Source: Candidatus Hermodarchaeota archaeon | Lineage (GTDB): Archaea > Asgardarchaeota > Hermodarchaeia > Hermodarchaeales > Hermodarchaeaceae | Length of the DNA: 64,000 bases | Direction: 5' to 3' | Assembly (NCBI GenBank): GCA_016840065.1 | Contig: JAEOTB010000054.1 | Coordinates: 16,483-80,482 of the forward strand | Part shown: positions 20,797-52,798 of the stretch, piece after piece | Layout of the letters: the number at the start of each line of letters is the position of its first letter | How positions within the stretch are numbered: the stretch's first letter is position 1 | Notes under the pieces: generated by a model | The model's input: only the letters and a program-made list of their open reading frames with translations | Told to the model about the DNA's origin: nothing | Databases searched by the model: none | Program-made: the position numbers and the translations under genes

Positions 20797-21501
20797 TTGG
20801 GCAGGCAAGCGAGTCGCATTTCGCGATTAACCCGCAATCCTTTAGATCTGGTGCAAATGTTGGGAGAAAATCCACCTGAAAGAGAACCGGTAGAATCCTT
20901 GACAAACCAAGCCATGTCTGTAACTGAAGGAACGCCTATCTTCAAACTTGTTTTTGCGGGCGAAGGAGGAGTAGGTAAAACCTCTATTGTTAACCAATAC
21001 CTTAGCGGAGAACACAATGAGCCACCTATGACGGTGGGCTCAGAGTTCGCTTATCAAGAGGTGGAGTTGGAGAAACAGACAGTAGGTTTGAGTTTGTGGG
21101 ATTTTGGTGGAGAAATTCAATTCCGAGACCTCATCCCGGTCTTTTGCATGGGTGCTCACGGTGCTGTGGTCGTTTTCGACTTGAGCCGTTACTCCACTTT
21201 TCGACAGATTATTGCCTGGCTAGACCTCATTAAGCAGACTGAAGACCACATACCAATAATCCTTGTTGGTTCTAAGAGCGATCTTGCGAGCGGGGGCCCC
21301 TCTGAGGAGGAAATTCAGGCGATTCGCGAGAAATATAAAATCAGAGAGTACATTACAGTCTCATCGTTAACTGGAGAGAATATCTCCAAACTGTTTTTAC
21401 GGATTTCAGAGATACTCATCGAGGCCGTTAAGGATGGGGAAATAACTCCTGCCAAGTCGGTCAAGGTACCTTGTCAGGGAAATGAATCCGTCTGCGATTA
21501 A
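20797..21501 (+). CDS. Rab/Ras-like small GTPase (true start probably ATG 20857 or 20914)
   Basis: G1 GEGGVGKTS, G2 MTVG, G3 WDFGGE, G4 GSKSDL, G5 VSSLTGENI. Confidence 0.9.
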   Translation: MGRQASRISRLTRNPLDLVQMLGENPPEREPVESLTNQAMSVTEGTPIFKLVFAGEGGVGKTSIVNQYLSGEHNEPPMTVGSEFAYQEVELEKQTVGLSLWDFGGEIQFRDLIPVFCMGAHGAVVVFDLSRYSTFRQIIAWLDLIKQTEDHIPIILVGSKSDLASGGPSEEEIQAIREKYKIREYITVSSLTGENISKLFLRISEILIEAVKDGEITPAKSVKVPCQGNESVCD

Positions 21502-47876: not shown

Positions 47877-48347
47877 ATGAGTATCATTAATCTCAACCCA
47901 GATGAAGTAACGATTCAGATTTTCTGTAAGACGTGTCAGACCGAGATAGAGGTTACTATACCTCGTCTTGTGATTGACAATGCCAAATCCTTTCCAATTG
48001 CACACCTCCACCTTCACGGGGACCCACCACATGGGTTAACACTCTATATTGATCGACATTATGGGGTTAGGGGAACCGAACTAAGCGAAGCAGTCACAAT
48101 CGAGAAACCAAAGGAAATTGCGCCCCTCACTAGCTTAGTATTGCTCCGGGTTCCAAAGCGACTTAAACAAACTGCGTTAGCTATGTTGAAGCTGCGGCAG
48201 GGTTCTGCCATAGAGGTTGCGAACATGACTGGTAAGGACCCAGCAGTCGAATCCCAATATCTGGGTCAGCTTTGGCGTATGGGCTACCTGATACGGACTA
48301 GAGTCCAACAACATTACCAGTATCAAATCGCGCAAGCAAATCCTTAA
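47877..48347 (+). CDS. CxxC/His metal-binding domain + C-terminal winged HTH
   Basis: CKTC...HLHLHGDPPH..LYID...VRG.E; LLRVPKRLKQTALAML...A.EVA..TG....VES.YL.QL..MGYL. Confidence 0.75.
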   Translation: MSIINLNPDEVTIQIFCKTCQTEIEVTIPRLVIDNAKSFPIAHLHLHGDPPHGLTLYIDRHYGVRGTELSEAVTIEKPKEIAPLTSLVLLRVPKRLKQTALAMLKLRQGSAIEVANMTGKDPAVESQYLGQLWRMGYLIRTRVQQHYQYQIAQANP

Positions 48348-48392
48348 TACATCAATAAACTAAGGCTCTATTGGACTTAGGAGTAACCGATT

Positions 48393-49199
48393 ATGTCTGG
48401 AGCAACTATTCACAAATCCATCTCAATTCACTCCTTTAAGGGAGGAACCGGGAAATCAAATATCTCATCTAATACTGCTTTGACCTTGGCAAGGCGAGGA
48501 CACAGTGTTGTCCTTCTAGACTTTGACTTCCGGGCCCCAAGCTTATCCACTTTATTTCAGATGAAGGATGGAGTGAAGTATTGGTTAAATGATTGGCTGG
48601 ACCAGAAGTGTGAACTCACAGATGCATTGGCAGACCTGACCAGCAAGTTTGGTACAAAGGGCAAGTTTCAGGTCGGCTTTACCAACCCGAGCGGCGATGC
48701 CATCAATGAGATGACTCAACACGGCTTAGATGAGGCCTGGCAGGCAAGAGTTCTTCAGCTAATCCTTGACGCGAAGGATACGCTCTTTGAAAGGCATGGA
48801 GTGAATTTCATAGTTTTCGACACCAGCCCAGGTTTTGCCCTAAGCTCAATAAACGCCATTGTAGCATCAGATCATCTAATTCTGGTTCTGAAGGCTGATC
48901 AGCAGGACTTGGTAGGAACAGAGCAGCTAATCAAAGGAGTTTATGACCAGACTCTTGGGAAGCAACCAGAACTAATACTGAACAAGATGCCTGTTAGCAT
49001 TCTCAAGTCTAAGGAGAAGTATGAGAGGATTCTAGGTGAAATACAGCAACAATTAGGAGTCAGAATCGTCTCTGTCATCGCTTGTTTCTGTGAAGTCTTG
49101 GAGAACCTTGGTAGCCAACTCTTCGTGATAGCGAAACCTGAACATCCCTTTACAAAGAGTATCGAACATCTGGCAAGTCACTTTGAAAAAGTGAAGTAG
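48393..49199 (+). CDS. MinD/ParA-family ATPase
   Basis: Deviant Walker A SFKGGTGKS, DFDFRAPSL, DTSPG, LNK; ends F....P.HPF. Confidence 0.9.
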   Translation: MSGATIHKSISIHSFKGGTGKSNISSNTALTLARRGHSVVLLDFDFRAPSLSTLFQMKDGVKYWLNDWLDQKCELTDALADLTSKFGTKGKFQVGFTNPSGDAINEMTQHGLDEAWQARVLQLILDAKDTLFERHGVNFIVFDTSPGFALSSINAIVASDHLILVLKADQQDLVGTEQLIKGVYDQTLGKQPELILNKMPVSILKSKEKYERILGEIQQQLGVRIVSVIACFCEVLENLGSQLFVIAKPEHPFTKSIEHLASHFEKVK

Positions 49200-49216
49200 A
49201 TAATGAGGTGATAATT

Positions 49217-50179
49217 ATGGAACCCGAACTAAAAACTCTAGTAGATGTGTATGGTCGAGAGAACCTCCCCACTCTTTTCTGTTTATTGTTGTCCAGAGAA
49301 CCTATCTTAGTGACAGGACAAGCGGATAGCGAAGCACTATCAATCCCATTGAAGATATTCACGCCTCACCGACGGGTTGTAACTGATCTTGATGTAACGC
49401 AAATATCACCATCCACCATAGTTGAACGCCTAAAAAGGGTTCAAGCCCAGACTTCTGGGAATTACGTGGTTGTTTTCCAAAACATTCCATCGGATTCAAT
49501 ATCTGAATTTGTGGAGCATCTGGACAGCTCTGATTTTAATCACAGCTGGATAGGAAACATTTCAACTCCAGTTGAAGTTGACGCTGTCACCTTCAGCATT
49601 GAGACAAAGGAGTTTCAGGGTGCTAAAATGGCCCTACCAATCCTAACTTTCGCTCAGACATTGCTTGAAAAGGTATTATCAGGACAGCTCTCGCTGGAGA
49701 ATTTCACCCAAGAACTAAGTAACCAAATCAGCATGGCTGAACAGCTCTATAAAAGACTAACCAAGCTCAAAAAGGCCGAGGACCTTGTAGGATTTCTTGG
49801 TCTGGACCCTCAAACCACCAACTTCGATGATATGTCCACACTCTTCCAACAAGAATATGGACTGCCCCTTGCTGATATGCTTCACCAGAGACTGGTTAAA
49901 TTCACCCGCTTAACCAAACTTTCCCAAATCACCTCCTTGACTCTGCTTCGACTACCCCAGCATTTGAAACTAACTGCTATGGCGATGCTTAGGCTCAGGA
50001 AAGCAACAGCTGGTGAGGTCAGTAAGCTGACTACGAGAACTCGGGGGTTAGAATCAAGGTATCTAAACGACCTAGCTAACATGGGCTTTCTCTGGAAAGA
50101 ACAGGAAGGGCGCCGTGCCTGGTTCAGTATTAAATCAGCAGCACCAACTCCAGGAACTGCACCTGAACCTCCCTTCTAG
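49217..50179 (+). CDS. Protein with DENN-core-like N-terminus and C-terminal winged HTH (paralogous to the 47877 wHTH)
   Basis: ENLPTLFCLLLSREPILVTG...L.IF.PH resembles the cDENN start (tentative); LLRLPQHLKLTAMAML...TAGEVS..T.R.R.LES.YL..L..MGFL. Confidence 0.6.
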   Translation: MEPELKTLVDVYGRENLPTLFCLLLSREPILVTGQADSEALSIPLKIFTPHRRVVTDLDVTQISPSTIVERLKRVQAQTSGNYVVVFQNIPSDSISEFVEHLDSSDFNHSWIGNISTPVEVDAVTFSIETKEFQGAKMALPILTFAQTLLEKVLSGQLSLENFTQELSNQISMAEQLYKRLTKLKKAEDLVGFLGLDPQTTNFDDMSTLFQQEYGLPLADMLHQRLVKFTRLTKLSQITSLTLLRLPQHLKLTAMAMLRLRKATAGEVSKLTTRTRGLESRYLNDLANMGFLWKEQEGRRAWFSIKSAAPTPGTAPEPPF

Positions 50180-50302
50180 GCGATTCTAATCACATCGAGT
50201 AAATACAAGAAATTACAACCTCATAGGCATTGACTATCCCCAACACCAAAAAGAATATACTATTCTAGTTGGTAAGTTTTTAGATAACAGAAGGTGAAAA
50301 AG

Positions 50303-52798
50303 ATGGCAGAAGAGGAAACGGACAAAGAGTTACAACAAATAACCCTTCGGGAACGTAACCTAGAATTCTATGAAGCAGCCCAAGCTTGTTTCGCGTGGTA
50401 CCGAAAGAGTCGTGACCATAACTTTGCGGTCCGAGGATGCGAGAACCTCTCAGCGAGTGCGTGGCAAGCGAAGGATAAGGAAGAGATGGATCAGCGGCTT
50501 AGAGAGGTTGTCACGCAATGTCAAACTGTCGCTGCTAATCCGATGCTAAGTGACTCCCAGCGCGCCCAGCTTCAAGGAATGATTTTGGAGTCAGAAGGTT
50601 GGCTTTCCGATCCGCCCGACGCAGACAAGTTCATCGAAGCTGTCAAGGTGTATGTCGATTCAGGAAACGTCTATTACGCCCTACAACTCATTCCCAGTCT
50701 AATTCCCTTTGTCCCCATGGAAAGACAGATCTACTGGGCTGAGTATGGAAACCAACTCGCCGAACCTCTGCCAGATGATCACAAGAACATTTTCTTCATT
50801 CTCTTCTCTGACCCGCTGATAGCTTATGTTGACCTTGAGAAGAAAACGAAAATAGCCGAAGAAATCTTCAAGCGAGCTGAGGCCCTTTCTTCTTCTACTA
50901 CTGATAGCCACCTCAAGGAGTTAGCTATACTCAAGGCTCTGAATACAACCCACCAGTACGGAGTAGAGAGGGACCGAGGTCATGAGATTCGACAAGCAAA
51001 CTTGGATGGGCTTGAGCGAGCGCTTTCTAATATTCACTCCAATCTTTTACGTGGGATCATGCTACAAGTCCTAGGTCTTTCTTATTATCGGCTAGCTGAA
51101 AGAGAAAAGGTTCCTGACATGAGGAGTACTCTATTCCAAGAATCAAGTGGTTTTGCTCAGGAATCAGTTTCCACCTTGGAACGGACGCGAGCATACGGAG
51201 AGTTGTTTAACTCCTATATTCGAGCAGGTACAACTTTTCTTAGCATCGCAGAACTGGCCAAGGATATCGAAAAACGTAACGAACTATATGGATTAGGTAA
51301 GGAGTACTTGCAGAAGGGACGAACGATAGGGGCTAGTACTCAGCTAGTACAACTGCGTGCTAACGTCGCCATCAATCTAGGAGTGGTTATTGAACGCATG
51401 TTGTGGCTCGAGACCGACCTTGAACGTAGAAGGGAATTGCTTCAAGAGGCCTTTGATTTACAGTTAGAGGCTAAGGAGCTCGCTGAGCAAAGTCAGGGAT
51501 ACAGGATGGCAGGTTATGCTAGTATGAACGCTAGCGAGTTCTGTGGGCTGATTTCAGACTTGGTATCCAAGCTCAGTGAGAAACAGAAGTGGGCATCCCG
51601 CCAACTTGGGCTTGGTCGTCAGAGTATAGAATTTTTGAAGGAAACCAAGGATTGGCGAGGTCAAATGGGAGCATACACCAATGCAGCCTTCGCTTATGAC
51701 AAGTTGGCTGAAGTATCTCCCTCCCTTGAAGAGAAACAGAAGCATCTCCAAGAGATGCTTAAATTTGCCTTGCAGAGCCTTGAATTAGTTGAACAGGTCA
51801 ATGACCCCCTGTCAACAGCCTTCGCATATCAGAAAACAGCGGACGCCTACCGTAAGCTTGGAGTTATTTCCGGGGATGTTGAGAAACTAGTTCAAGCTAT
51901 CAAGTTCTACGAGCTATCCAAGGTAGATTACGAAAAGACTGGCGAGAGACACAAGCAGGGAGAAATCAACACCATTCTTGCTGATACGCTGTTGATTCGT
52001 TCAGGTCTTGATTCAAAGTTGCCTGCAGGAAAGCGTCAAGAAATACTTCAGCGATGTCAAAGCATCCATCGTACAACATCGGAATTGTACAACCAGCTTT
52101 TCCTCTTCCATAAAGCTGGTGAGAACCTCTGGAAAATTGGGCAGATACACCTTATCAAGGGTGAGCACAACGAAGCTCGGGAAGCTTTTACTGAAGTGAG
52201 AGACGCCTTCAACAGAATTGCGCGTATGGTACCTGCACTTGCTGAAGGATACAGTTTGTTCATTAAATTCTCCGAAGCCTACATCAGGATTCCTGACGGG
52301 TTAGCTAATTTCGCAAGGGGCGGCTATTCAGAGACTGAAAAAACCTTCAACGAAGTTGCTTCCGAGTTCACAAAGGAGGCAGAGAGTAGCCTCCGCCAAC
52401 TCCGTCAACTCCTAGAGGCTGCAAACTCTGTTTGCCAATTCGTAACCACTGGAAATTCTGGCCCAGCAGAAAAAGCGAAACAACAATTGAACCGCCTCAA
52501 ATCTACACTACAACCTGATGCATACACGCTACGTCTTCCATTCAGTATCCATGATTCGATAAGGAAATTACTGTCCTTCATCGAGGATCCAAGTCAAAGC
52601 TTTCCTCCACCCCTCATTGACCTTCCACTCGAGGAGAAGATGTTGACAATTGCCCAGACTGGACACTTGGTTCGTACAGCCATGAGTTTGTATCAAGCCG
52701 CGTCTCAGCATCAAGAAACCGAAGTCGCTGCGCCAACAGAGGAAACTATCCGCTCCTATGTCGCTCGAATAAGTCAAATGGTTGCCTCCCGAGCGTGA
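50303..52798 (+). CDS. Large alpha-solenoid (TPR-like) protein
   Basis: Repeated helical pairs, e.g. AFAYQKTADAYRKLG...AIKFYELS and AGENLWKIGQIHL...AREAF; 830 aa, no TM. Confidence 0.75.
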   Translation: MAEEETDKELQQITLRERNLEFYEAAQACFAWYRKSRDHNFAVRGCENLSASAWQAKDKEEMDQRLREVVTQCQTVAANPMLSDSQRAQLQGMILESEGWLSDPPDADKFIEAVKVYVDSGNVYYALQLIPSLIPFVPMERQIYWAEYGNQLAEPLPDDHKNIFFILFSDPLIAYVDLEKKTKIAEEIFKRAEALSSSTTDSHLKELAILKALNTTHQYGVERDRGHEIRQANLDGLERALSNIHSNLLRGIMLQVLGLSYYRLAEREKVPDMRSTLFQESSGFAQESVSTLERTRAYGELFNSYIRAGTTFLSIAELAKDIEKRNELYGLGKEYLQKGRTIGASTQLVQLRANVAINLGVVIERMLWLETDLERRRELLQEAFDLQLEAKELAEQSQGYRMAGYASMNASEFCGLISDLVSKLSEKQKWASRQLGLGRQSIEFLKETKDWRGQMGAYTNAAFAYDKLAEVSPSLEEKQKHLQEMLKFALQSLELVEQVNDPLSTAFAYQKTADAYRKLGVISGDVEKLVQAIKFYELSKVDYEKTGERHKQGEINTILADTLLIRSGLDSKLPAGKRQEILQRCQSIHRTTSELYNQLFLFHKAGENLWKIGQIHLIKGEHNEAREAFTEVRDAFNRIARMVPALAEGYSLFIKFSEAYIRIPDGLANFARGGYSETEKTFNEVASEFTKEAESSLRQLRQLLEAANSVCQFVTTGNSGPAEKAKQQLNRLKSTLQPDAYTLRLPFSIHDSIRKLLSFIEDPSQSFPPPLIDLPLEEKMLTIAQTGHLVRTAMSLYQAASQHQETEVAAPTEETIRSYVARISQMVASRA

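Follow-up and report, generated by a model that had tools for sequence, protein, structure and literature searches.

ParA/MinD ATPases organise DNA and protein cargo, and what such an ATPase means depends on its adaptor. The closest described counterpart of the locus examined here is the 'ParA-wHTH system' (wHTH, winged helix-turn-helix) of the ConB2 assemblage, a computational prediction by Li, Burroughs and Aravind (22 Oct 2026; bioRxiv 10.64898/2026.10.19.760177). According to the available part of that preprint, the system is mostly archaeal and comprises a ParA gene with at least one wHTH gene, the wHTH being preceded by a long N-terminal helix. Some versions carry a fused V4R or profilin/longin-like domain, the proteins are predicted to coat invader DNA, and the ConB2 signature is an arginine in place of the second Walker A lysine. 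The locus lies in a 64,000-nucleotide (nt) stretch of a Candidatus Hermodarchaeota genome (contig JAEOTB010000054.1, positions 16,483 to 80,482), called the window throughout. It consists of a ParA/MinD-class ATPase gene (gene 2) flanked by two winged-helix genes (genes 1 and 3) and followed by a gene for a TPR-like protein (gene 4). The DNA occurs in three marine-sediment DNA runs of a single study, with no RNA run among them, and one homologue carries the label Promethearchaeota.

As in the ParA-wHTH system, a ParA-class gene is accompanied by winged-helix genes, here one on either side, and the pairing is widely conserved. Long-helix and longin-like forms occur among the relatives of the locus, the winged helix may correspond to the preprint's PwHTH1, and the PG motif named in the preprint is present in gene 2 (DTSPG). 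The general ParA-wHTH type, which an earlier note on this stretch had taken for an undescribed system, had already been predicted by computation. New here, relative to the available part of the preprint, are the heads that the winged helices carry, namely a Cys/His metal domain and a P-loop-like/helical module lacking a nucleotide site (a dead nucleoside triphosphatase, NTPase), and a conserved TPR-like fourth gene. Relatives of the locus also carry TackOD1 and membrane-anchored heads, which are absent from the preprint's system description as far as that is available. Unlike in the ConB2 signature, the Walker A lysine is kept in 22 of 23 members of the gene 2 clade, with arginine in one.

A second point of comparison is the AspA-ParB-ParA cassette of the Sulfolobus plasmid pNOB8, in which AspA is the centromere-binding protein (PMC13722703). 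Both encode a ParA-class ATPase together with a small archaeal winged-helix protein, and the winged helix of our locus is of the AspA type. Unlike in pNOB8, no ParB-like bridging protein was found among the four products, the genes stand in another order, the upstream region showed no palindromic site, the ATPase is a distant relation and the partners carry extra N-terminal domains. ParA-ParG, SegAB, HpaAB, McdAB, MinDE and FleN-FleQ likewise place a deviant Walker A ATPase beside a small, lineage-specific partner that gives it a target. In those two-gene modules, the partners are ribbon-helix-helix (RHH) proteins, peptides or other folds that stimulate the ATPase through an N-terminal tail, whereas at our locus it is a C-terminal winged helix that is conserved, behind freely varying N-termini. 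HpaAB of Haloferax, weighed as a possible close relative, was set aside, its adaptor being an RHH protein. Across archaea, a single conserved winged helix appears to connect very different heads with one ATPase clade. Among the Asgard heads are longin-like and dead-NTPase modules, which recall eukaryotic GTPase regulators.

A winged helix and its ATPase clade are inherited together

The winged helix and the ATPase clade have been inherited together, and the N-terminal heads have been swapped between lineages. An exhaustive HMMER search, which covered 1.84 billion representatives, returned 459 matches to the winged helix of gene 3. Throughout the traced family this domain is C-terminal, behind very different heads. 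The commonest head is a short helical region, and others are the metal domain of gene 1, a TackOD1 domain with an Mrr-like nuclease-type stretch (one weak Pfam match), a membrane-anchored ectodomain made of a signal peptide, an MG2 domain and a membrane span, and a longin-like domain (Fuz_longin_1, expect value (E) 2.4e-5, narrowly missing the cut-off). In some simple relatives the winged helix follows a long helix. Every context with enough flanking sequence had as its neighbour an ATPase 27-43% identical to gene 2, encoded downstream of the small adaptors or upstream of the longin-type adaptor.

Synteny agrees with the pairing envisaged in the earlier note: of the 56 strong winged-helix matches found in 151 Asgard genomes, 34, spread over 30 genomes, have an ATPase of the gene 2 clade within 2 kb. 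Three of the other 22 matches stand at contig ends and 14 belong to one genus with an expanded family. Presence follows whole families, as in 17/18, 24/26 and 7/7 genomes of some against 0/25 and 0/7 of others, and the adaptor type tracks the ATPase subclade in a maximum-likelihood tree built from 23 ATPases. The winged helix itself is well conserved, with a mean column identity of 52% over 40 diverse members. It resembles TrmB/ArsR/MarR types, and a profile built from the 40 members, searched against all Protein Data Bank (PDB) sequences, matched only AspA chains (E 1.7e-5 to 2.6e-5, over 52 residues).

At the locus itself, much of what the earlier note had read from the letters stands. The first three genes are co-oriented on the forward strand and tightly spaced, by 45 nt between genes 1 and 2 and by 8-17 nt between genes 2 and 3 depending on the start codon; the start it had chosen for gene 3 is that of the homologues, which begin at ATG 49217. 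The C-terminal domains of genes 1 and 3 are indeed paralogous (BLASTP, 38% identity over 84 amino acids (aa), E 4e-17), their N-terminal parts are unrelated to each other, and the 2.59-Mb, 84%-complete assembly holds just these two copies of the winged helix. The CxxC-plus-histidine site proposed for gene 1 has six invariant residues, and the assignment of the middle gene to the MinD/ParA class is upheld by its Pfam matches and intact Walker A motif, both detailed below. As the note had also said, no ParB or MinE is recognisable: Pfam and NCBIfam searches gave no match to either family for any of the four products. For genes 1 and 3, Pfam, NCBIfam and PADLOC returned nothing meaningful; PADLOC gave no meaningful match at the unit, and a Pfam search found no effector domain in it.

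The unit probably has a fourth component in the TPR-like gene 4, because in the sister genus its orthologues directly follow the ATPase gene, after a gap of about 4-14 nt and with gene 3 missing. There the order, kept in 12 of 15 genomes, is a divergent ATP-grasp gene, gene 1, the ATPase gene and the TPR-like gene. Identity to the sister genus is 50-56% for gene 1, 64-66% for the ATPase and 35-39% for the TPR-like protein, compared with 52-57% for the flanking ATP-grasp enzyme. One genome of the window's genus has an orthologue of gene 4, 83% identical, at the same position. Among the genomes compared, full-length gene 3 is confined to the window's own genus, and it is the variable member of the unit.

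The genus with the expanded family, represented by seven genomes, has 4-7 winged-helix copies per genome. It shows recurrent pairs in which a small winged-helix gene is divergent from a gene for a 560-600-aa protein, away from any ATPase; these larger proteins bear the winged helix near the N-terminus.

Proposed role of the module and competing explanations

We propose that the module is a lineage-specific four-gene elaboration of an archaeal ParA ATPase with a winged-helix partner, working in DNA-anchored positioning or as an ATP-dependent nucleoid switch, and we give this proposal an even chance of being right. In such a system, the winged helix would be the constant working end, binding DNA as AspA does and also meeting the ATPase dimer; input, cargo or scaffolding would come from the variable heads and the TPR protein. 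In the window, two adaptors would bring different heads to one ATPase: gene 1 a metal domain of the Cys2His2 type, gene 3 a dead NTPase-like module with its helical part. Since no other element recurs in every partner, the winged helix is the most plausible point of contact with the ATPase, and its likeness to AspA suggests that it may bind DNA as well.

The predicted complex of an ATPase dimer, two ATP molecules and the winged helix scored 0.49, against 0.06 for the best of three controls. Its runs share at least 82% of contacts, and the partner has a predicted local distance difference test score (pLDDT) of at least 82. In a benchmark of this score, 58 of 80 solved complexes and 2 of 110 mismatched pairs passed; scores of 0.60 or below accounted for only 7 of the 80 solved complexes, but for both mismatched pairs that passed. 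The prediction thus lends weak support to a contact between winged helix and ATPase. Of the docking model in the earlier note, in which a shared winged helix brings two heads to one ATPase, the shared-adaptor logic holds.

Several observations weigh against our proposal. At the level of the complex score, a pass is wrong more often than it is right. The recognition helix of the winged helix contains an invariant Glu, and the gene 1 copy has lost a nearly invariant Arg at the start of that helix, both unusual for a DNA reader. Upstream of gene 1 we found no centromere-like palindrome or repeat array, only short, imperfect and widely spaced inverted repeats. The head of gene 3 has a narrow range, occurring in one genus and in a very divergent Njordarchaeial form, and one relative of the family adjoins HEPN/nucleotidyltransferase (HEPN/MNT) toxin-antitoxin genes. 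Finally, the only published treatment of this type of system predicts, in its available part, a role in immunity (bioRxiv 10.64898/2026.10.19.760177).

On that immune reading, the winged helix and the ParA protein would intercept and coat the DNA of invading selfish elements, with the extra heads as sensors or multimerisers. The description in the available part of the preprint matches the family that we traced independently, the restricted gene 3 head would fit fast evolution, and the HEPN/MNT neighbours and the expansion of the family in one genus point the same way. We nevertheless regard immunity as unlikely here. A housekeeping, cellular role is more likely than defence because the unit is syntenic, apparently vertically inherited and present or absent by whole families, because gene 1 and the ATPase have diverged no more than the adjacent ATP-grasp enzyme, and because neither an effector domain nor a PADLOC signal was seen in the unit. 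The strong conservation of the winged helix and the absence of the ConB2 arginine signature also argue against the predicted immune role. With two adaptors and a putative scaffold protein in a stable operon, the locus is a compact place in which to compare the cellular and the immune reading.

Two further explanations draw on particular features of the proteins. Genes 1 and 3 could encode sequence-specific transcriptional regulators, one of them metal-sensing, with the ATPase as an anti-activator or co-regulator like FleN for FleQ; FleN is among the best solved relatives of the ATPase, and the TrmB/ArsR/MarR-like winged helix and the conserved metal site of gene 1 would suit such a role. We judge it rather improbable, below immunity: no palindrome resembling an operator is conserved upstream, plain regulators are not typically tied in an obligatory way to a single ATPase clade while carrying such different heads, membrane-anchored ones included, and AspA, the nearest solved relative, is a centromere binder and not a regulator. 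Alternatively, the ATPase might be a metallochaperone NTPase like Mrp, NBP35 or HypB, handling metal or cofactor together with gene 1, the Cys/His protein. A CxC motif in most of the clade, matches to the Pfam model 'NUBPL iron-transfer P-loop NTPase' and to Cfd1, the invariant Cys2/His4 set of gene 1 and a neighbourhood that encodes cofactor biosynthesis all lean towards it. The Mrp-type matches, however, span the P-loop region only (aa 6-60), the CxC is lost in several subclades that retain the winged-helix partner, and most partners have no metal site, which makes metal handling a distinctly improbable account of the module.

The head of gene 3 and its likeness to DENN and Orc1/Cdc6

Two partners in the window's module are unusual, and the head of gene 3 is the one for which a link to DENN domains and Rab signalling had been raised. 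Gene 3 has five close homologues, and its N-terminal domain gave no match among the 1.84 billion representatives searched with HMMER. The closest distant counterpart is a 327-aa Njordarchaeial family; its gene immediately follows an ATPase gene whose product shares 42% identity with gene 2 and is sister to the window's clade (support 90/86 in the maximum-likelihood tree). BLASTP aligns residues 18-310 of gene 3 with the Njordarchaeial protein at 21% identity (E 1e-7), a signal owed mostly to the winged helix. With the N-terminal parts alone, hhalign aligns 43 columns, at matching N-terminal positions, with E 0.0014. Homology of the two heads is therefore likely but not proven.

An AlphaFold2 (AF2) model of gene 3 built with the five close homologues alone was unusable (pLDDT 45.8). 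After the Njordarchaeial family had been merged into the alignment, the pLDDT rose to 75.5 overall and to about 80-89 in the first 170 residues. In the model, two helices lead into an alpha/beta domain of five to six strands, which is followed by five helices and the winged helix. In a Foldseek search, archaeal Orc1/Cdc6 structures came first (2v1u_A, E 4.7e-5; 2qby_A, E 5.2e-5), followed by ORC, Cdc6, RFC and Apaf-1. The top 26 matches at E of 0.001 or below are nearly all ORC/Cdc6 or RFC clamp-loader chains, with one Apaf-1 (apoptosome), aligned over the whole length. The AAA+ order of base, lid and winged helix that gene 3 would share with Orc1/Cdc6 is that of a model at pLDDT 75.5. Unlike Orc1/Cdc6, gene 3 shows no sequence similarity to that family, its winged helix is ParA-associated and not Cdc6_C, and at the corresponding positions both it and the Njordarchaeial family lack the GxxxxGK[ST] of Walker A and the acidic residues of Walker B.

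DENN structures align with gene 3 nearly as well as Orc1/Cdc6 does. The cDENN domain has been described as an alpha/beta sandwich with minimal P-loop NTPase topology, devoid of nucleotide-binding residues and followed by the all-helical dDENN (Zhang et al. 2012, PMC3521125). Because this description fits gene 3 equally, the fold does not separate a DENN module from a dead AAA+ domain with its lid. Searches by sequence favoured neither. Pfam DENN (PF02141) gave no match at E up to 1 for gene 3 or in the search with its Njordarchaeial counterpart, and none at E up to 10 in the whole genome, while AAA_22 has 88 matches in the genome, none of them at gene 3. A profile of the N-terminal part had no match at E up to 10 among all PDB sequences. 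With hhalign, the gene 3 family compared with the genome's own Orc1/Cdc6 gave E 0.74 and nothing in the N-terminal part, and a comparison with an AAA_22-wHTH protein also gave nothing there. An ESM Atlas search by shape returned mainly winged-helix matches, uninformative on the N-terminal part; a search by feature returned AAA/Cdc6-type clusters at 0.80-0.84, a lead only.

Of the DENN-like start that the earlier note saw in gene 3, there remains a generic resemblance of folds, seen in a model in which Orc1/Cdc6 ranks first, and sequence lends it no support. The note's link to small-GTPase signalling found no support. The GTPase that it named is real, a Ras-family member at 20797-21501 (Pfam Ras, E 8e-30) and the sole Ras-family gene in the window, but it lies 27 kb from the module and no linkage between them was seen. 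DENN modules of eukaryotic Rab guanine nucleotide exchange factors (GEFs) comprise uDENN/longin, cDENN and dDENN, whereas the two leading helices of the gene 3 model run straight into the alpha/beta domain, with no longin (uDENN) lobe. That gene 3 is a true DENN-type GEF module, coupling the positioning ATPase to small-GTPase signalling, is therefore the least probable of the readings considered: beyond the missing sequence signal, lobe and linked GTPase, genuine NTPases align with it equally well or better.

We also entertain, as a long shot, that gene 3 and its Njordarchaeial counterpart are prokaryotic relatives of the DENN-dDENN core, and that, in Asgard archaea, the components of eukaryotic longin/DENN GTPase regulators were at first in the service of an ATPase switch of the SIMIBI class. 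A longin-type domain, which makes up the other half of a DENN layout, is found on sister adaptors of the gene 2 clade. If true, the DENN-dDENN core, so far known only from eukaryotes, would have prokaryotic relatives.

Some further proteins recall parts of gene 3. In place of full-length gene 3, a fourth genome of the window's genus encodes, at another location (locus L011, 1468-1812), a free-standing 114-aa winged helix that is 54% identical to the gene 3 C-terminus, its Pro/Thr-rich tail included, and that may be the source or a remnant of the C-terminal part of gene 3; the gene lies between a 167-aa gene and a long open frame. In a complete Njordarchaeial genome (locus L018, 2075-5666), a Roadblock/LC7-like protein (Pfam E 0.0017), the ATPase, the gene 3-like protein and a 176-aa protein are encoded together. 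The 176-aa protein is a free-standing relative of the longin-type heads found on other adaptors (pairwise E 3e-5). These longin and Roadblock flanks were found in the one genome and not in a 70%-identical relative (locus L050). A 388-aa protein of the Hermodarchaeota genome (contig C30, locus L051, 619-1785, minus strand) joins an intact AAA_22 ATPase to a C-terminal MarR-type winged helix, and is a live analogue of the gene 3 layout, with no sequence relation to it.

The ATPase, the metal domain and the layout of the locus

Features of the module, with coordinates in the window
Feature	Position	Strand	Description	Basis
Gene 1	47877-48347	+	156 aa; metal-site head and C-terminal winged helix	Open reading frame, translation
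Gene 1 metal-site domain	aa 1-75, 47877-48101	+	CxxC and His cluster	
Gene 1 winged helix	aa 77-155, 48105-48341	+	Paralogous to winged helix of gene 3	
Gene 2	48393-49199	+	268 aa; ParA/MinD-class SIMIBI ATPase	Pfam matches, motifs
Gene 3	49217-50179 (ATG; GTG at 49208)	+	320 aa (323 from GTG)	Start set by homologues
Gene 3 P-loop-NTPase-like alpha/beta domain	aa 1-138, 49217-49630	+	Lacks Walker A/B residues	
Gene 3 helical domain	aa 139-232, 49631-49912	+		AF2 model
Gene 3 winged helix	aa 235-308, 49919-50140	+		
Gene 4	50294-52798	+	834 aa, TPR-like helical repeats	Weak TPR matches in Pfam

Gene 2 most likely encodes an ATP-sandwich-dimer switch of the ParA/MinD class, since it carries all the motifs of that class: an intact deviant Walker A motif (KGGTGKS), a DxD switch I, DTSPG and NK. 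The deviant Walker A motif is conserved across the 23 ATPases of the clade. Pfam AAA_31 (E 8.2e-15), ParA (9.4e-12) and CbiA (1.1e-9) all match above their cut-offs, with 55.6, 45.3 and 38.7 bits against cut-offs of 27, 27.1 and 25.4 for the three models. The protein falls far below the equivalog cut-offs of MinD, ParA and Mrp, and its scores of 54.6 against 212.9 bits for TIGR01968 and 53 against 201.75 bits for TIGR01969 do not attain the level of MinD proper. Among solved structures, its nearest relatives (archaeal MinD, Cfd1 and FleN) match at E 1e-7 or weaker, and pNOB8 ParA is among the weaker PDB matches. The protein ends four residues past the last helix conserved in the clade. The CxC motif, here C-F-C (aa 231-233, 49083-49091), occurs in about 18 of the 23 clade ATPases; it recalls the cluster-bridging CxxC of Mrp/NBP35 ATPases. 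A second ParA/Mrp-like ATPase in the genome (contig C80, 419-1147, locus L040) is about 30-32% identical to gene 2, has no winged-helix neighbour and is conserved across the family.

All of 13 homologues of gene 1, the most distant with 52% identity, keep residues C17, C20, H43, H45, H47 and H52. Orthologues of gene 1 with 50-61% identity are known from the sister genus and from metagenomes. The core metal site is probably Cys2His2, because a paralogue of the domain in the same genome retains only C17, C20, H47 and H52. This paralogue (188 aa, 32% identity, E 4.9e-10; contig C58, locus L048, 686-1776, minus strand) is fused to a different winged helix and encoded downstream of a 433-aa gene and directly upstream of a V4R-domain protein, the only setting in which V4R appears in these data.

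Nine orthologous spacers upstream of gene 1 were compared, and TATA-like blocks and one block specific to the sister genus are all that is conserved. The latter, an 18-nt block with the consensus CTTGAGAAGTTCGCATCA (spacer alignment columns ~130-150), is present in five sister-genus genomes and absent from the window's genus, and might serve the divergent gene pair as promoter element or operator.

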